Positions 28,972-37,829 of a stretch of DNA of 64,000 nucleotides are shown here, piece after piece. The DNA is taken from assembly GCA_043802485.1 (NCBI GenBank), contig JAZDKZ010000005.1, positions 1 to 64,000 of the forward strand, given 5' to 3'. A model generated the notes under the pieces. The model saw only the letters and a program-made list of their open reading frames with translations. It had not been told where the DNA came from and searched no databases. The position numbers were made by a program, and so were the translations under genes. This stretch comes from Candidatus Aenigmatarchaeota archaeon. GTDB lineage: Archaea > Aenigmatarchaeota > Aenigmatarchaeia > Aenigmatarchaeales > Aenigmatarchaeaceae. Every line of letters starts with the position of its first letter. Position 1 is the stretch's first letter.

Positions 28972-31107
28972 TTATTTTCTATTCTTCTTTATCTTCTTCT
29001 CGCTTTCCATTATGTTCTTCAGTTCCTTTATGTCCTTTGTTATCTCCGTCTCAAGGTCCTTGACCTTCTCCTCCTTGAGCTCCAAGGTCTTTGGCTTTGC
29101 CTTGTTTATTTTAGGCAGGTTGGCAGAAAACATTTTCTTTATGCCGCTCAGACCGCTCTTTGATTTTTTCCCGGATTTTGCACCGCCCATTTTCATCAGA
29201 TTCTGCGTCAGCATACCCCTCTTCATGAAGACTATCAGCGAAAGCGCAATGCCCAGAACAAGAATCATATAAGGGAAGTATTCCGAACTCATTGACAGCA
29301 GGCCTGTAGGCAGGGCCCATCCGCTCGTCTCGTTGCCATTATCAGAAAGGACCTCCAACTCGGCATCTTCACTGGTAACAGCAGCGACCACAACCTCCTC
29401 CGCCGTATTGTTTGAGCTGACTGTCAGGGTTACTATGGTTTCCCTGGTAAGGCTTGCCCCTGAGAAAAGGTTCTTTCCAAGGGCCTTTACCTTTATGCTG
29501 TAAGTGTCTGCCGTGGCATTTGCAGGAATGTTAAGCGTCATCTTGACTTTTTCCGTTGTGCCATCCTTTAATCTCGATATCATTGTTTTGTCAAGAGCAT
29601 ACCAACCAGAGTCGATGCCTGAAACTGTTATGCTGGTTACGTTTATGTCGTTTTCATAGGTGTTGATTAAGGAGAATGATATTACCTTGCTCGAGCCTGC
29701 ATCCATTGTTATCGTAGATTCGGACGCAGACAGGGTGAACTGGCCCTGGACTGAAGTTGTGTCGCTACTTGTATCAGCACCACCTAGCGTATCGCCACCA
29801 TCAAAAGTAGCAACAACAAGATTTTTAGAATCATAGCCAATAGAATAGTTCCTATTACCTACACTATTACAATTATAGGTAAATGTTCCTGTACTAGAAG
29901 GTACAACAAAAGAACATGAAACAGAATTATTTCCTGAACAAGTAGATATTCCTGAACCTGTTATATATAGAGTTAGATTATGTGCTGGAGAAACAGAACA
30001 TGTTGCAACAACATTACTCGACGGTGTTGTTGTATATGTATCAAGGCCTAAACTCACAACAACCACTATCCTATTTATCAAAAATGTCAATGAATCGGTT
30101 GATATTTCTATGCTGTTGTTATCAACAGCTATCCATCTGTAATCGTAACTACCGCCTCCCAAGTCAGTAAAGTTTATCCAATAAATATCACCACTCTGAT
30201 TAATGGTTATATTATTATAAGTTGTAGAATTATCAACTGTGTAATTTTGAGTCCCATTTATAAAATCTGCCTCAAAGATAACTTGAGAAACATTTCCTGT
30301 AATATCTATCTGGAAACCATAATTCCTTCCTTGTGTATAATTTGAACCTGAAGCTACACTTGTCTGATTATCAGACCAAATAATATTTGCAATATTAAAG
30401 AAATATGTCTTTGATCCATTGGTATAGTTTTCGTCACTATCATCCCAATATGAAGTAATGTAAAACGTTCCGATACTAGTCAGATTTATAGAATCTGTAA
30501 CAAAGGATGTGTTGTTGCTAAGAATAGTCCATCCAGTGTAATTAGAATCCAAATAAACTGTTTTATTAGGTAATAACAGATAAGATGAGAAGTTTACTGT
30601 TTGATTCAAGAAATATGTCTTGTTGCCTTCTTCGCCATTTAGTTTTAGTGTGACGTTTGTCGAATTTTGAGCTACCTCATAAATCCAGTATTCTCCATTA
30701 TTTGTAACATTAGAGTCATCTGTCTCGTCATTGGCATAAAATTTCCACACATAAGTTCCTACTGCTAAATCGCTTACGTTAAAATAATATACATCACTTT
30801 CGTTTGTAATTACTGTATCATTATGGGGAATCGTGTTTCCTGTAAAATTATGCTCTATAAGGACGAGATTGACTTGGTTTATAGCATCGGTCCAAGTCAC
30901 GTTAAACTGATAATTCTGTCCAGGAGAGTATTGAGACCCAGAAGTAACTGAAGTTGTATTATTAGACCATTGAGGTGTATTATCCATAAAACCGATATTG
31001 ACATCCATTCCTATCCCAAAACCATCTTCGGCAGCATACACTGTGAAAGAAAACACTGCCAAAAATAGGAAAACTGATAGAACCGCGGTAATGTTGTTGT
31101 TTTTCAT
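28972..31107 (-). CDS. Surface glycoprotein (signal peptide, Ig-like repeats, C-terminal TM, basic cytoplasmic tail)
   Basis: Many NxS/T sequons, duplicated module, PTGLLS before the TM. Confidence 0.85.
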   Translation of the reverse strand: MKNNNITAVLSVFLFLAVFSFTVYAAEDGFGIGMDVNIGFMDNTPQWSNNTTSVTSGSQYSPGQNYQFNVTWTDAINQVNLVLIEHNFTGNTIPHNDTVITNESDVYYFNVSDLAVGTYVWKFYANDETDDSNVTNNGEYWIYEVAQNSTNVTLKLNGEEGNKTYFLNQTVNFSSYLLLPNKTVYLDSNYTGWTILSNNTSFVTDSINLTSIGTFYITSYWDDSDENYTNGSKTYFFNIANIIWSDNQTSVASGSNYTQGRNYGFQIDITGNVSQVIFEADFINGTQNYTVDNSTTYNNITINQSGDIYWINFTDLGGGSYDYRWIAVDNNSIEISTDSLTFLINRIVVVVSLGLDTYTTTPSSNVVATCSVSPAHNLTLYITGSGISTCSGNNSVSCSFVVPSSTGTFTYNCNSVGNRNYSIGYDSKNLVVATFDGGDTLGGADTSSDTTSVQGQFTLSASESTITMDAGSSKVISFSLINTYENDINVTSITVSGIDSGWYALDKTMISRLKDGTTEKVKMTLNIPANATADTYSIKVKALGKNLFSGASLTRETIVTLTVSSNNTAEEVVVAAVTSEDAELEVLSDNGNETSGWALPTGLLSMSSEYFPYMILVLGIALSLIVFMKRGMLTQNLMKMGGAKSGKKSKSGLSGIKKMFSANLPKINKAKPKTLELKEEKVKDLETEITKDIKELKNIMESEKKIKKNRK

Positions 31108-31195: not shown

Positions 31196-31414
31196 ATGCC
31201 TAGAAAAAGGTCCATTATAGCAGCTGCCCCAATGGCAGAAATCCTGAAGAGCGCAGGGGCAGAAAGGGTCTCAGAACCGGCCGCCCGAGCTCTGGCTGAA
31301 ATAGTCAAGGAATATACCTTCGAGCTGGCCAAGGATGCTGTCAAGTTCGCAAAGCACGCTGGTAGAAAGACTGTAAAAAGGGAAGATATAGAATTGGCCA
31401 GAAAAAGGGTTTAA
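31196..31414 (+). CDS. Archaeal histone (HMf-type)
   Basis: [16 protein letters not shown]...[17 protein letters not shown]. Confidence 0.93.
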
Positions 31415-31750: not shown

Positions 31751-32248
31751 TCAACCAATGTACCTTGTACAGGACCTGTCAAAGCCCTTTACAAGCCTGA
31801 CCGGCTCTTCTATCTTCGGTGCGCCTTCTGGATAGACAAAATTAGGAAAGAACTTTCTAATGTCCTTTGATATCTCTGTTACGACGTTCTTCTCGCCAAA
31901 TATCTCCTTGCTTATCTCATACGCAAGCTCGCAGACATCATGCTCGTCGTAAATGCCAAGGCTGTGCAGATACTCGTGTAATAGAACGTGGAAGATGTAC
32001 GGGTTCAGCAGTTTCGAATCAGTCTCCTGTATCCTTTTCAGCGGCGTCTCGTTCATCACTATCATGTTTGAGCCTGTGACATAGTAGGCTCCCACAAAGC
32101 CTTGCGGCTGGTTGCCCATTTCCACAAGGCCGAGCTCCAAACCTGCACGGCTCCTCCTGAGGCTCTTCCAGACTGCGTCTTTCACAACCTCGAATATGTC
32201 AGGAATCGAAGTCGATTCGTTTATCTTGCAAATAAAATCTCTGTCCAT
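31751..32248 (-). CDS. Zincin-like HExxH metalloprotease ending in RYIG
   Basis: FVGAYY...IVMN...HVLLHEYLHSLG; start at MDRDF (32248). Confidence 0.8.
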   Translation of the reverse strand: MDRDFICKINESTSIPDIFEVVKDAVWKSLRRSRAGLELGLVEMGNQPQGFVGAYYVTGSNMIVMNETPLKRIQETDSKLLNPYIFHVLLHEYLHSLGIYDEHDVCELAYEISKEIFGEKNVVTEISKDIRKFFPNFVYPEGAPKIEEPVRLVKGFDRSCTRYIG

Positions 32249-32270
32249 AAATCTAACCAATGTACCTTGT
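31753..32270 (+). repeat. Exact 16-bp direct repeat aaccaatgtaccttgt (31753-31768, 32255-32270) flanking the zincin gene
   Basis: Read directly; both copies encode TRYIG on the minus strand; 10-nt core atgtaccttg recurs at the cdc48 3' end. Confidence 0.9.
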
Positions 32271-32591
32271 GTTCTCAACGTCTTTGTATTTCTTCTTCAC
32301 AGCTTCTGCCTTGGGAAGCGCGATCTTCCCGAACTTTTTCTCATAGTTCTTGACGTTCTTCTGCAGGATGTCCGCAAAGGACTTGGCAAACTGCGGGTCC
32401 AGTATCACCGTGTTGTGCTTTATGGTGAAGGTCTGCTGCATCTTGCCGTTTATGTTGTCCAATCTCGGAACTGTTTGGGAAAAGTCTATGATGAACTTGT
32501 TCGGATTGTGCAGCACCGAGACGTTGTCAGTGAAGAACGCGTCATTGTTGTGATCGATTTTTAGATTAACTCTTTCTTGTTTTTCAGCCAT
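32253..32591 (-). CDS. DUF3467-family protein ending in RYIG
   Basis: FFTDNVSVLHNPNKFIIDFSQTVP...VILDPQFAKSF...NVKNYEKKFGKI. Confidence 0.85.
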   Translation of the reverse strand: MAEKQERVNLKIDHNNDAFFTDNVSVLHNPNKFIIDFSQTVPRLDNINGKMQQTFTIKHNTVILDPQFAKSFADILQKNVKNYEKKFGKIALPKAEAVKKKYKDVENTRYIG

Positions 32592-32601
32592 TATTATCAC
32601 C

Positions 32602-35600
32602 TTATCCTATGTACCTTGCCTGATCGTCCATCTCTGTCTTCTTCAGGTTCTCGACAGCCTTTTTGTATTTGCACGCCGGGTCCTCAGTTATTGAAGGCTT
32701 TATTCTTTTTAAAGCTTTTTCAAAGTGCTTTGAGGCAACTTCCTTTGCATTCTTGTTCTCCCTCAAAGCGAACAGGGCTGCTTCCCTGACCAGAGCCTCG
32801 ATGTCAGCTCCTGAGAACTTGTCAGTCTCCTTGGCAATCTTACCTAGGTTGACGCCTTTCAGCGGCATGTTCTTTGTGTGTATCTTCAGTATGTCTTCCC
32901 TAGTCTTTTCATCCGGAGCAGGAACATATATCAGCCTGTCGAACCTGCCTGGCCTTAGCAATGCCGAGTCCAGTATGTCCGGTCGGTTGGTTGTCGCGAT
33001 GACAGAGACTCCTTCCATGTCCTCTATCCCTGACATCTCTGTCAGTAGTTGTGAAACCACCTGCTCGGTCACATGCGAACCAGATGACATGCCCCTCTTA
33101 GGAGCCAGCGAGTCTATCTCGTCAAACAAAATTATGGCCGGAGCGACCTGCTTGGCCCTTCTGAAGACGTCCCTGACATGCTGCTCGGATTCTCCGACCC
33201 ACTTGGAGTTGTGCAATAACATTGGTATGTTACCGCCAATAAAAGAGTGATGCTCCGTTTCAACATCATACATAATTTGCGCTTTTGTTTTGGCTTTCTT
33301 TACAACAGTCGTCCATAAGAAATCACCCTTTGCAATCATTTGTAAAGTTTTGAAATCTTTGTTTTGTTTTATTTCATCGGAAACTTGTTTTTCGAATATC
33401 CGCATAATCCTCTGCAATCTCAGCAACCCTATTTTTCTCCTTCCCGAAATCACATGCTCAAACGAACCATCAGGAATCTCTTTATCATATGTTAATCCAG
33501 ATAGTTGTTTGATTTTTTTCAAAAGTGAAGCAACAGGTGGTATTTCATATTGTCCATTATATTCGTCTCTAACCTCACTATTGTCGTCAGTACCTAAAAC
33601 TAGACTCTTAAATTTATGAAGTTCAAGTGCTCCTGATATTGTCAACATATACATGTCGTCTTTTCTTTTCCAGAACTTTGTTTTAATGCCTAAAATTGTA
33701 GTCAGATATGCAATCCCCTCTGTAAGTGACTTGGATTTTGAGCTGTATTCTATCTTGGTTTGGGAAATTGAACCGTCGCCTCTATACACTGCTTTGAGGA
33801 AAGAGGTTATTACATCTTTTGTTGATTTGGCGATTATTGAAGGGCATTTTATATTATGTGATTTCTTCTCGCCAAGGGGTTGGTCTAAAAGTTGTTCTAA
33901 ATATTTAACCAGCGGCATGGAATAAACGATAATTCTATCTTTGTATACTGTAATTCTGCTTCCATCAACAAACTGCTTAAACAGCTTGATAATCTCATTT
34001 TGGTTTGCTTTATTGTAATTGCAGATTGTGACAGCTTCTTCAGAGACATTGCCTTCAGAGACAAACCATCCTAAGAATGCAGCTAGATTTTTTGTCAAGT
34101 ATTTTGGCAGGCGTGTTGTTGTGTTTGTTGAAAATATCTTTACATAATATGCATCGTTGTCCTCCTTGACGAGTCTTAGGTGCTCGTACTTTGGCAGAGG
34201 AATCTGAACTACCTTATCAAGCGTATCCAATCTACAGGGATAAGAAACGTAATCCCCTTCCTTGATTTCAGACATCTTGATCCATTGGACATATCCATTT
34301 CTATAAACAAGTAATGGTTGGTTTGCTGAACCTGTTAATTCTGAGTTGTTTTTCAATTCAATATGGTATGCATCTTTCACGAAAAGCTTGTGCATCGTCT
34401 TTACCTGCGTCTTGACAGCTTCTCCGTTATCACCAATTGCAAACGTATAAACAGGCTGAGTTAGTTTTCTGACCTCATAATTTTCATTTTTCTCAATAAG
34501 CTTTGAAATTGGTGTAATATTTTCATAAAACCTTTCAATTGGAATTGTACCACAATGATTTGTCAAAATCTTTGTGTCTGGAGAAACACACAACAACTCA
34601 GGTCCCTTTATTGAAATGAAGTTCACCCCTGCCTCGTTCGCTAGTGCTTTCACAACATAAGTCTTGCCGCATCCTGCCGGACCGTACAATAAAATTCCTC
34701 TGGGCGGCCTGATGCCCACTCGTTTGAAGCTCTCTGGATTTTCCAAAGGCCATATGACAGACTCCTTCAATGCCTCCTTGACATCGTCCAGTCCTCCCAC
34801 TTCATCCCATTTTACCTTCGGGATCTCGATGAGGACTTCCCTCATGGCAGACGGCTGGACTATTCTAAGCGCATAGTCGAAATCATCTGCCTTTACCTTG
34901 AGCTTTTCTAAAACATCTTTCGGTATGGGCTCGTCCTCTTTCAGTGTGGAGATGGTCGGTATCACCCTTCTCAGGGCATGCATTGCAGCCTCCTTTGCAA
35001 GACCGGCAATGTCAGCACCTACGTAACCATACGTTACTTCGGCCAATTTGTCAAGGTCAACGCCCTTTTCCAAAGGCATGTAACGGCTGTGTATCTGCAG
35101 TATCTCCTTCCTGCCCTTTTTATTCGGTACAGGAATCTCTATCTCCCTGTCAAACCTTCCTGACCTTCTCAGGGCAGGGTCCAAGGCGTTGACGCGGTTC
35201 GTTGCTGCTATGACGATGACTCTTCCTCTGGACTTTAGACCGTCCATCAGTGTCAGCAGTTGGGAAACAGTCCTTCTCTCAACCTCGCCTGTAACCTGCT
35301 CCCTGTTCGGAGCTATCGCGTCAATCTCATCAATGAAAATAATGCTTGGCGCTGACTTTTCAGCCTCGTCGAAAACCTTTCTCAGGTTCTGCTCTGTCTG
35401 GCCGTACCATTTGGAAAATATCTCAGGGCCTGCCAGTGAGATGAAATGAGCTCCCGACTCGTTGGCAACAGCCTTTGCTATCAGAGTTTTTCCAGTTCCG
35501 GGCGGGCCGTGCAGCAGAACTCCTTTCGGCGGCTCGATGCCCAACCTTTCAAACACCTCAGGCCTTCTCAGCGGCACCTCAATCATCTCCCTTATCTTGG

Positions 35601-36246
35601 GAACTATCTCGCCCAAACCGCCAATGTCCTCATAAGTAACTGTAGGCATTTTCTCCTCTGATATCTCGACAGCCTCCGGCAGCATCTCGACCTCGGTCAT
35701 CTCAGTTATCTTCGTGATGCCGTCAGGACTGGTCTTGACTACTACAAGACGCATCTCTGTTCCCATGGGCAGGAAAACCTCCTGTATGTCTATGCCAAAG
35801 AACTGCGAAAAGACGTCGTCGCCTCTAGATTTTGTCTTGAACACAGGAGACGTGGTTATGATGTCACCCTTTGCCATGGGTCGCATGAAAAGATTCTGCT
35901 TAATCAAATTAGGCGAGATGTGCAGCATGATTCCCTGCTGCGCAGGAGCCAATGTAACCTTCTTGGCCTCCTTTGCTTCAGCCTTCCTGACAGTGACAAA
36001 CTCGCCTATGGTAGCGTTACAGTTCTTCCTTACCAGTCCATCCACTCTTAATATGTTAAGCCCTATGTCAGCAGGATAGCTTCTTATCGCGACGACTCCT
36101 GTCTTTCTCTTGCCCTCTATCTCGAGAATTTCGCCTTCATTTACTCCCAGCTTCTTCATTATTTTCGAATCAATCCTGGCAATGCCCCTTCCGAAATCCT
36201 CCCTGCCTGTAAGCTCCCCAACTTTTAGTTTTATATCATCAGCCAT
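32602..36246 (-). CDS. cdc48: Cdc48/VCP AAA+ ATPase (intein-containing precursor), ending in RYIG
   Basis: N domain, D1 [16 protein letters not shown]2 [14 protein letters not shown]; ~753 aa after intein removal. Confidence 0.97.
33208..34590 (-). mobile_element. Intein (461 aa) with LAGLIDADG endonuclease in Cdc48 D2
   Basis: [12 protein letters not shown]...MYDVET...[21 protein letters not shown] and [10 protein letters not shown] motifs; AT-richer than exteins. Confidence 0.95.
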
Positions 36247-36256
36247 AAAATCACCC

Positions 36257-36598
36257 TTATTGTTTTAACTCCTCTTCCTCCTTTTTATCTAGCAGAACGG
36301 GAAATGTCTTCAGCTCTACCTTGTCATCCCATTCGTCGAAAAAGCTCATCATCCTCTTCATGTGCTCCATGGCAACTATGAAGACCGAATCAGCAACTTT
36401 AATATGAGGAATTTCCTCTAATAAACCTTCCTTCTGATAAACATACCTCTTGGAATGCCTGAAAACGACCTGCCTCCTGCCGTGCAGCTGCCAGTAAAAT
36501 CGGTTCCTTTCCGATGCAGAGTCAAACTTTTCCTTGACCGTGTCAAAGCTTATCAGGACAGCCGTCTTGCCATCTGTCTTCTTTATCTCAATCCTCAT
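36257..36598 (-). CDS. Cas2/VapD/PaaX-like ferredoxin-fold protein, first gene of the cdc48 operon
   Basis: VLISFDT...ERNRFY..L.G...[16 protein letters not shown]; 10 nt from the cdc48 start. Confidence 0.55.
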
Positions 36599-36668: not shown

Positions 36669-37118
36669 ATGAAAAAATATGGGGCGTCTTATAGCACACT
36701 GCCAAAAAACGATAGAAACAGGCTGGAACTGATAGACGCTGCCGAATATCTAAAGGGCCTTTTTGACGGCATTGAGAGAAAGGAGGTCCTATGGGTAGAT
36801 GCAAGTGATAAAGATTTCTGTAGATATTTGAAGGGGAATTCGCAAGGCGAGAAGGTTAGGATAATTGGCGGCTACAAATACGGCTCTGGACAGAACAAAA
36901 TGATTATGAAGAGTCTTGTCGTGTTAGCAGAGAACAACGGCCTTCGAAAAGCAATGCATGGGGAAGATTTCAAATTTATGGTTTCAGCAAACGAGTCATT
37001 TGACAGAAGTAATGTTAACTTTTGGCTTAAAGGCAAAAGCGCTAAAAAAATACTTGAAATAAACAATATGACCAATAAAGTAAAGCTGAGATATCCTATA
37101 ACAGGGGTTCTGAAGTAG
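36669..37118 (+). CDS. Hypothetical protein
   Basis: 149-aa ORF, no recognised motif. Confidence 0.6.
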   Translation: MKKYGASYSTLPKNDRNRLELIDAAEYLKGLFDGIERKEVLWVDASDKDFCRYLKGNSQGEKVRIIGGYKYGSGQNKMIMKSLVVLAENNGLRKAMHGEDFKFMVSANESFDRSNVNFWLKGKSAKKILEINNMTNKVKLRYPITGVLK

Positions 37119-37151
37119 TAATAAATTTTTAACATTGCAATATTGATTAAT

Positions 37152-37829
37152 ATGAAAAACATTTCTTTAGAGATCAAAAGGGGGAACATAGCGTACCAGA
37201 ATGTGGATTCGTCTATCAATTCTTCTAACGGTTATTGTATACACGGCTCTGGAACCGCAAAACAATTTAGAGAGGTATGTGGTTATCTGCCCGTAGGTGA
37301 TACGTCTTACCAGAGCTTGGTCGACAAGGCAAAACATCCCTTGGATAAAGTTTTAGCTTATGTCAACAATGTAAGGCCAAGACCGTCCGTATTTCAGAAA
37401 GAATGCCTTGAACACATAATAGATGTTAGAGATTCCAAGCCTCTGGAATTAGGTGATGCACTTGTCACGTCCAGCGGAGACCTGGCAAAAGTACCGAAAA
37501 AGGCAAAATATATTATCAACGCAATAGGTATGGATTATAGCTGGGAAAAAGAACCGCCTGCTGTAATCAAGGCAACACACAATTCTGTCAGGGACTCGCT
37601 GATAAAGTGTTTTGACATAGCAAACAGAAAAAAGTGCAAAAGCGTTGCAATGCCCATAATGTGCACGTCGAAAGGCGGGATGAGCCTAGAAGAAAGCCTT
37701 TACGCTTCAAATGAAGCTTTGCAAGCACTGGATATGACAACCAGCTATGTCACAAAGGTTGTAATAGTTCTCCACAGCAAGGAGCTGTTAAAGGAAGAGA
37801 AAGTAATCAGGGATTTTTTCAAGTTATAG
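37152..37829 (+). CDS. Macro-domain protein (divergent)
   Basis: GNIAYQNVDSSINSSN...HGSGTA, GDALVTSSGDL, KYIINAIG, SVAMPIMCTSKGG. Confidence 0.8.
   Translation: MKNISLEIKRGNIAYQNVDSSINSSNGYCIHGSGTAKQFREVCGYLPVGDTSYQSLVDKAKHPLDKVLAYVNNVRPRPSVFQKECLEHIIDVRDSKPLELGDALVTSSGDLAKVPKKAKYIINAIGMDYSWEKEPPAVIKATHNSVRDSLIKCFDIANRKKCKSVAMPIMCTSKGGMSLEESLYASNEALQALDMTTSYVTKVVIVLHSKELLKEEKVIRDFFKL

Follow-up and report, generated by a model that had tools for sequence, protein, structure and literature searches.

A Tyr-hydrophobic-Gly C-terminal tail in an aenigmatarchaeal cdc48 operon: a probable proteasome docking tail with two candidate client families

The cdc48 operon

The window analysed here is a stretch of 64,000 nucleotides (nt) from a Candidatus Aenigmatarchaeota archaeon (GenBank assembly GCA_043802485.1, contig JAZDKZ010000005.1, positions 1 to 64,000, forward strand), whose genome consists of seven contigs with a total of 769 kb and is estimated to be 89% complete. 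It contains a minus-strand operon of four genes, encoding a protein of 113 amino acids (aa) that we call p113, a Cdc48 unfoldase, a DUF3467 protein and a small zincin-like metallopeptidase (hereafter zincin), in this order and with gaps of 10, 10 and 4 nt. Three of these unrelated proteins end in the same four residues: Cdc48 in QARYIG, the DUF3467 protein in NTRYIG and the zincin in CTRYIG. The translations and measured distances thus agree with an initial annotation of the locus, which had described tightly packed genes (gaps of about 4-10 nt) sharing an RYIG end. A fourth protein with such an end, the proteasome activator PbaB, is encoded on another contig. We propose that this Y-hydrophobic-G end is probably a docking tail for the alpha ring of the 20S proteasome in Aenigmatarchaeota and related DPANN-type archaea, where it would replace the canonical hydrophobic-Tyr-X (HbYX) tail, and that the DUF3467 protein and the zincin would be docked accessory factors.

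The cdc48 gene (32602-36246, minus strand) encodes a double-ring AAA+ unfoldase of the Cdc48/VAT type, in which Pfam recognizes CDC48_N, CDC48_2 and two AAA domains with their lids. Its R-Y-I-G codons lie at 32605-32616, next to the stop codon at 32602-32604. The open frame of 1214 aa includes an intein of 461 aa (33208-34590, minus strand; aa 553-1013) that interrupts D2 between GPELL and SKWVGESE and is not mentioned in the initial annotation. This intein matches Pfam Intein_splicing and LAGLIDADG_3, the latter a homing-endonuclease domain, and its junctions are those expected of an intein (C...HN/S: Cys as first residue, His-Asn as the last two, and Ser as the +1 residue). The spliced protein would have 753 aa, 690 of which are identical in the intein-free, 753-aa orthologue of the closest relative (L014). 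The cdc48 open frames of 11 other genomes of the phylum are 1203-1885 aa long, and their matches are interrupted near residues 277-284, 332-359, 443-454 or 548-553, which suggests several intein insertion sites in the cdc48 genes of this phylum.

Downstream of cdc48, the DUF3467 gene (32253-32591, minus strand; R-Y-I-G codons at 32256-32267, stop codon at 32253-32255) encodes 112 aa, counted from an ATG start that is backed by homologues. It is followed by the zincin gene (31751-32248, minus strand; R-Y-I-G codons at 31754-31765, stop codon at 31751-31753), for which the ATG start giving 165 aa was used.

A rare tail, conserved in Cdc48 and PbaB

The PbaB protein (257 aa; G000:C6:150250-151023) is a member of the PAC2 family. 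It matches PF09754 (E 3.8e-45) and scores 221.9 bits against TIGR00162, for which the cut-off is 200, while its match to 3vr0_A (E 1.3e-57) identifies it as the orthologue of Pyrococcus furiosus PbaB. It ends in LKYIG. A stop codon directly follows R-Y-I-G in the three operon genes and K-Y-I-G in the pbaB gene, placing all four motifs at the extreme C-terminus, as in HbYX proteins.

Such ends are rare in this genome. Among its 3502 open reading frames (ORFs) of at least 50 aa, only those of Cdc48, DUF3467 and the zincin end in RYIG. When only ATG-started ORFs of 100 aa or more are counted (1056), three RYIG ends compare with 0.009 expected, and four YIG ends with 0.16 expected by composition. 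A chance origin of the shared tails is excluded. Two further ORFs of at least 100 aa with a Y-x-G end were judged unrelated to this set: a 275-aa ORF ending in YRG, and a 703-aa subtilisin-like protein (G000:C1:124450-126561, plus strand) ending in DYYYG, with an N-terminal hydrophobic stretch resembling a signal peptide. The latter also has Cys-rich repeats and, if exported as it appears to be, is unlikely to belong with the tailed proteins.

Conservation was followed in two samples: 12 related loci from named genomes, mostly Aenigmatarchaeota, and 61 genomes of the phylum. Cdc48 ends in [RK]YIG in all 12 related loci. It was found in 59 of the 61 phylum genomes, and its C-terminal end was fetched for 20 of these, representing 19 orthologues and one paralogue. 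All 19 orthologues have Tyr at the third position from the end, and 16 end in Y-x-G (YVG in seven, YIG in four, YLG and YTG in two each, YMG in one); the single paralogue, which is tail-less, serves as a contrast. PbaB is likewise present in 59 of the 61 genomes. Outside the genome studied here, 56 of 58 PbaB proteins from the phylum end in YIG and one in YLG, the remaining one being evidently a wrong ORF pick. In a wider search, 119 of the 120 PbaB homologues listed (of 932 found) end in YIG, 108 as KYIG and 11 as RYIG; the initial annotation's statement that some PAC2 proteins end in RYIG is therefore borne out.

Counting from the C-terminus (P1 being the last residue), the families have in common a Tyr at P3 that is followed by a hydrophobic residue (P2) and a final Gly (P1). 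The residue ahead of this core, at position -4, is free, as R, K, S, T, G, D, E, N and Q were all seen. In one family of the phylum (f6), P4 is acidic in Cdc48, PbaB and DUF3467 alike, while the other families show no such co-variation, and we do not count it as support.

What this tail might do is suggested by its place. P. furiosus PbaB is an ATP-independent activator whose C-terminal Gly-Tyr-Leu is needed for 20S binding and activation (PMC3605417), and Thermoplasma acidophilum Cdc48 needs its Leu-Tyr-Leu tail for the 20S (PMC3493965). The [R/K]YIG of Cdc48 and PbaB described here occupies the position of these validated HbYX tails of model archaea. Moreover, Cdc48 is the only ATPase of the PAN/Cdc48 type found in this genome; the PAN model TIGR01242 scored above its cut-off in none of the 61 phylum genomes, and in this one it matched only pieces of Cdc48. 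With no PAN found, the part of proteasomal ATPase should fall to Cdc48, which nevertheless has no canonical HbYX. None of the four proteins has Tyr or Phe as its penultimate residue (P2). Their Tyr stands at P3, as it does in nearly all homologues, in agreement with the initial annotation, which had remarked that RYIG is not a strict HbYX. Screens for strict HbYX, such as those using the pattern of PMC3493965 or the ProEnd database (PMC11475706), would not flag Y-hydrophobic-G tails. Our literature search, whose coverage leaves out most subscription journals, found no published account of such a tail.

The DUF3467 protein

The DUF3467 protein matches PF11950 well above threshold (48 bits, E 1.3e-12; cut-off 25 bits). 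Its AlphaFold2 (AF2) model has a beta-beta-beta-alpha core, followed by a Lys/Glu-rich linker predicted to be disordered and then NTRYIG. The predicted local distance difference test score (pLDDT) of the model is 67.6, falling below 50 for residues 99-112. The model yielded nothing at E<=0.001 with Foldseek against the PDB; the best Z scores of a VIA-wide structure comparison, 4.6 for a COMM domain and 4.1 for Pur-alpha, do not suffice to assign the fold. When PDB sequences were searched with a profile, no match fell below E 0.38. The sole mention of DUF3467 that we found in the literature concerns an unrelated topic.

Among homologues, the linker ahead of the tail varies freely, and the tail itself is kept: 56 of 59 end in YIG (54 in RYIG and one each in KYIG and SYIG). 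Being short, conserved and placed at the end of a predicted disordered region, the tail could also be read as a signal for degradation or turnover instead of docking. We consider this highly improbable: the same tail is present on an unfoldase and an activator, at the very place of their known docking tails, and only four proteins of the genome carry it.

All 12 related loci encode a DUF3467 protein ending in RYIG, in 11 of them directly after cdc48. In the phylum sample, the gene was found in 24 of 61 genomes, and all 22 loci fetched have YIG ends, at identities down to 33%. Here, DUF3467 adjoins cdc48 only within the window's own order; in 18 phylum loci the tail is kept with no cdc48 within about 4.5 kb. 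A full HMMER search of 1.84 billion representatives returned 732 DUF3467 members. Among the best 150 of these, 102 end in Y-[IFMLVY]-G (47 YIG, 22 YFG, 17 YMG, nine YLG, six YVG and one YYG). When 30 divergent members were aligned (mean column identity 36%), only three columns were invariant: a single Glu and the Tyr and Gly of the tail.

Metagenomes extend this picture. A scan with a single DUF3467 protein as query gave no match, and a scan with an alignment of the YFG-type subfamily gave 80 loci. The 64 complete archaeal-type proteins among them end in YFG (30), YLG (23), YMG (8) or YIS (3). Pro stands at position -5 of 60 of these proteins, and 49 have Ser or Thr at -4, so that the wider consensus of the tail is P-[ST]-Y-[FLM]-G. 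Twelve distant copies lack such a tail. At least two of them are bacterial (L243 and L244), adjoining a one-piece RpoC gene and an OmpA gene.

In 67 archaeal-type metagenome loci (L166-L233, e.g. L192:1214-7530), which represent another archaeal lineage, the DUF3467 gene is a constant part of a heat-shock cluster. The cluster consists, in order, of an ArsR-type helix-turn-helix gene on the opposite strand, grpE, a gene for a CxxCxxCC protein, an optional small gene, DUF3467, dnaK and dnaJ. DnaK was found in 47 of these loci, GrpE in 39 and DnaJ in 27. The downstream sequence was long enough to locate the start of dnaK in 36 loci, and in 18 of these it lies -7 to 332 nt from DUF3467. No cdc48 was found in the flanks of the metagenome loci, and PbaB appeared only in L212, where it ends in DYIG and the DUF3467 protein in SYLG. 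DnaK was not found in the genome studied here, and it was found in 13 of the 61 phylum genomes. Taken together, the cdc48 and grpE-dnaK-dnaJ neighbourhoods place DUF3467 with a protein-quality-control machine, and the tail goes with the archaeal members.

The zincin

The second accessory protein carries a HEYLHSLGxxDE motif, which resembles the Zincin_1 pattern. Its match to Zincin_1 (PF06262), at 19 bits, lies below the cut-off of 22.4, and 14 of 25 family members match this model at E<=1. Its AF2 model is poor (pLDDT 58), and in the VIA-wide comparison all Z scores obtained with it are below 5, among them those of the minigluzincins 4qhf (4.7), 4jix (3.9) and 4jiu (3.7). A profile search against the PDB gave nothing meaningful. 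Zincin_1 proteins and minigluzincins (selecase, projannalysin and proabylysin) are soluble peptidases with a HExxH motif and a small size, about 105-165 aa, features that the zincin described here shares; no member of either family is known to have a proteasome-type tail or linkage to cdc48.

The family itself is highly conserved, also in its zinc-binding motif and at its end. Among the 120 homologues listed (of 311 found), 118 have HE[YF][LI]H (107 HEYLH, ten HEYIH and one HEFLH) and 118 end in YIG (87 RYIG, 28 SYIG and three others). In 25 aligned sequences, with a mean column identity of 79%, H91, E92, H95 and E102 are invariant. The zincin occurs in six of the 12 related loci, always with RYIG, and in 12 of the 61 phylum genomes. 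Nine of ten zincins fetched from other families of the phylum end in Y-[IVF]-G, and one in YYLR. In four genomes without DUF3467 (G037, G015, G053 and G050), the zincin directly follows cdc48. According to the atlas, language-model look-alikes of about 165 aa are present in Nitrososphaerota, Thermoplasmatota and Bathyarchaeota, so that the family may extend to these groups. One apparent DUF3467-zincin fusion (P0122, 283 aa) was set aside, as its ...KYIG-W-CNL... junction indicates that the gene caller probably read through a stop codon.

The presence of a metallopeptidase gene in the same operon raises the question of whether Y-hydrophobic-G might be a capped, latent HbYX, from which a carboxypeptidase, possibly the tailed zincin itself, would remove the terminal Gly to leave x-Y-I and thereby switch docking on. 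This would account for the near-invariant Gly at P1, and a tail without it has a penultimate Tyr, like the G-Y-L of PbaB and the L-Y-L of Cdc48. However, the residue that would then take the 'Hb' place is R, K, D, E, S or T, and thus mostly non-hydrophobic. No carboxypeptidase signature was demonstrated, and the zincin was found in only 12 of the 61 genomes, while nearly the whole phylum has YIG tails. We therefore give this possibility only a slim chance.

The alpha ring as the proposed receptor

Of the proteasome, a single alpha and a single beta subunit are encoded in the genome, the latter at about 85.4 kb of C1. The alpha subunit (G000:C1:101843-102535; L026:1501-2193) was found in all 61 phylum genomes, and 25 alpha subunits of the phylum were aligned, with T. 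acidophilum numbering taken from an ungapped alignment. The residues K66 (K62 in this genome), G19, P17, E25, Y26, A30 and G80, described as HbYX-binding in the alpha pocket (PMC10349882), are invariant in 25 of 25. The candidate receptor is thus encoded with its pocket intact, which counts in favour of docking. The L81 equivalent is Leu in 12, Ile in seven, Phe in five (including this genome) and Tyr in one, and the K33 equivalent is Arg in 16 of 25. Thr13 of the 'IT switch', which PMC10349882 describes as highly conserved, is never Thr in the 25 subunits (V in 14, A in eight, S in two and I in one). A Ser in place of A154 was considered as an adaptation of the pocket and rejected, since Ser is also present at this position in Methanocaldococcus jannaschii and in another solved archaeal alpha subunit.

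Several points weigh against docking in this pocket. The pocket keeps its canonical residues, although the Tyr of the tail is antepenultimate rather than penultimate. PMC10349882 reports for the T. acidophilum 20S that the Tyr hydroxyl lies at G19 and the terminal carboxylate at K66, that the bridge between the two is critical in its length, and that lengthened analogues are inactive. Consequently, a tail whose Tyr lies one residue further from the end must bind differently. The Tyr may take the 'Hb' site, by analogy with the human Y-Phi motif (discussed below), or it may stay in the usual site with the terminal Gly turned back towards the Lys. Furthermore, P2 does not co-vary within a genome: Cdc48 may end in YVG, YTG, YLG or YMG where PbaB and DUF3467 keep YIG. 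DUF3467 and the zincin are also patchy, as their counts in the phylum sample indicate, and neither can be core to the system. For the zincin, the poor fold model and the sub-threshold family match count as well. A complex prediction of three alpha subunits with DUF3467 residues 76-112, both entered as alignments and run without controls, scored 0.06 where the mark is 0.32, which speaks neither for nor against binding.

The departure of the motif from the HbYX register, in the face of a canonical-looking pocket, could also mean that the tails are recognized by one shared receptor distinct from the 20S, e.g. a domain of Cdc48 or an archaea-specific quality-control hub. There is a precedent in eukaryotic p97, whose C-terminal tail is read by cofactors, and both DUF3467 and the zincin are encoded directly after cdc48. 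The tail-less bacterial DUF3467 copies would fit such a receptor too; as those bacteria have neither Cdc48 nor the proteasome, this control does not separate the two receptors. On the other hand, Cdc48 itself and PbaB bear the tail, and in their orthologues the tails are experimentally shown 20S-binding elements. In addition, the DUF3467 tail is kept in the phylum loci away from cdc48 and in dnaK operons. A receptor of this kind therefore seems unlikely to us.

We favour the alpha ring as receptor because the tails correspond in position to those validated in orthologues, are conserved, belong to linked genes and are missing from bacterial DUF3467 copies. They are most likely a form of the proteasome docking tail that is common to the whole lineage, to which DUF3467 and the zincin would add two new client families. 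The conservation, spread and gene linkage of the tails and the orthology of Cdc48 and PbaB are observed; that the proteins bind the 20S, how the tail sits in the pocket, that the gate opens and what DUF3467 and the zincin do is inferred from them. The initial annotation had proposed a docking mode shared by the three operon proteins. The survey of C-termini and of synteny near cdc48 that it had suggested turns out in its favour, with the tail conserved in orthologues of all three proteins in related genomes and the same tail on PbaB, so that a shared, proteasome-linked tail is well supported. Entry of the tail into the alpha ring, an oligomeric or activating DUF3467 protein and an active protease in the zincin keep the standing of predictions. 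The proteostasis module that it had also postulated appears looser than an operon-bound system, given the patchy presence of DUF3467 (24/61) and the zincin (12/61), the tail of DUF3467 copies away from cdc48 and the occurrence of DUF3467 in dnaK operons.

Proposed mechanism and relation to known systems

In the mechanism we propose, Cdc48, PbaB, DUF3467 and the zincin would each present the tail on a flexible C-terminal linker, and the tail would insert between adjacent 20S alpha subunits. DUF3467 and the zincin would thus share, or compete for, the alpha-ring pockets used by Cdc48 and PbaB. For DUF3467, the most likely role would be in protein quality control, as a small adaptor or as a cofactor of the holdase type. 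Its gene accompanies the machine that is dominant in a given lineage (cdc48 here, grpE-dnaK-dnaJ elsewhere), and the protein may tether the clients of that machine to the 20S. The zincin might act on substrates or products at the proteasome entrance.

Unrelated proteins with a common docking tail are known from other lineages. In actinobacteria, Mpa, Bpa/PafE and Cpa share GQYL, a lineage-specific four-residue C-terminal motif of unrelated 20S interactors. Unlike the tail described here, GQYL has a penultimate Tyr, its hosts are bacterial and its client proteins differ. The HbYX tails of PAN, Cdc48/VAT, AMA and PbaA/PbaB offer the same general arrangement as Y-hydrophobic-G: a Tyr-containing extreme C-terminus, carried on a flexible linker and common to unrelated proteins. 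The two differ in register, as the Tyr of Y-hydrophobic-G is at P3 instead of P2; its P2 has a hydrophobic side chain, aliphatic or aromatic (Ile in the proteins described here), and its P1 is almost always Gly.

In register, the tail resembles the Y-Phi motif of the human 20S, in which Tyr is mandatory at P3, Phe and Tyr are the preferred residues at P2, and Ser does best at P4. This motif was defined with synthetic peptides (PMC8907193, Opoku-Nsiah et al. 2022). Tyr at P3 is common to all four proteins described here and nearly invariant among their homologues, and the wider DUF3467 consensus P-[ST]-Y-[FLM]-G fits from P4 to P2, with Phe at P2 in 22 of the best 150 DUF3467 representatives and in 30 of the 64 metagenome copies. 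In contrast to Y-Phi, P2 is Ile in the window, where Phe or Tyr would be preferred, P1 is a fixed Gly, and the archaeal motif is known from sequence.

For DUF3467, a functional model is offered by P. furiosus PbaB, which acts as activator and chaperone with tentacle-like C-terminal segments (PMC3605417): both are small non-ATPases in which a flexible segment ends in a docking tail, or a putative one in the case of DUF3467, whose beta3-alpha fold is unrelated. The DUF3467 genes of grpE-dnaK-dnaJ operons belong to the same Pfam family and again have quality-control neighbours, whereas here the partner is cdc48.

Four observations are new here: the zincin follows cdc48 even without DUF3467, DUF3467 occurs in the dnaK clusters of other DPANN-type archaea, bacterial DUF3467 copies are tail-less, and the P3 Tyr resembles that of Y-Phi. 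One may speculate further that the tail forms part of an archaeal P3-Tyr docking code that is the natural counterpart of Y-Phi, with DUF3467 as a chaperone-to-proteasome adaptor, whose handover of clients would be functionally comparable to the eukaryotic links of Hsp70 or Cdc48 to the proteasome, and the zincin as the first peptidase known to occupy alpha-ring pockets; this larger picture is tentative and, on balance, rather doubtful. If docking through Y-hydrophobic-G is true, the consequences are several. Searches for proteasome partners use hydrophobic-Tyr-X, to which proteasome networks of the DPANN type would be invisible. A P3 Tyr, so far peculiar to the human 20S, would gain a natural archaeal counterpart. 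DUF3467, a wide and unstudied family, would have its first testable function, and the zincin would be a minimal metallopeptidase tethered to the proteasome.

Neighbouring genes

The first gene of the operon, p113 (36257-36598, minus strand), starts the series 10 nt upstream of cdc48. Its product has no Pfam or NCBIfam match, its C-terminus lacks a Y-x-G tail, and its look-alikes in the atlas are unnamed archaeal clusters. It lies upstream of cdc48 in eight of the 12 related loci and also in L056, L060 and L062, at distances of up to about 680 nt in relatives.

Beyond the operon end, and convergent to it, lies an archaeal histone gene (31196-31414, plus strand), whose place is kept in nine of the 12 related loci. 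Further on, a 711-aa protein (28972-31107, minus strand) has an N-terminal hydrophobic stretch resembling a signal peptide and, near its C-terminus, a second hydrophobic segment ahead of a lysine-rich end. With its very many N-x-S/T sites, it is probably a glycosylated surface protein. On the other side, genes for a 149-aa protein (p149; 36669-37118, plus strand) and a Macro-domain protein (37143-37829, plus strand) diverge from the operon. The p149 gene stands beside the operon also in L014, and both genes do so in L016.

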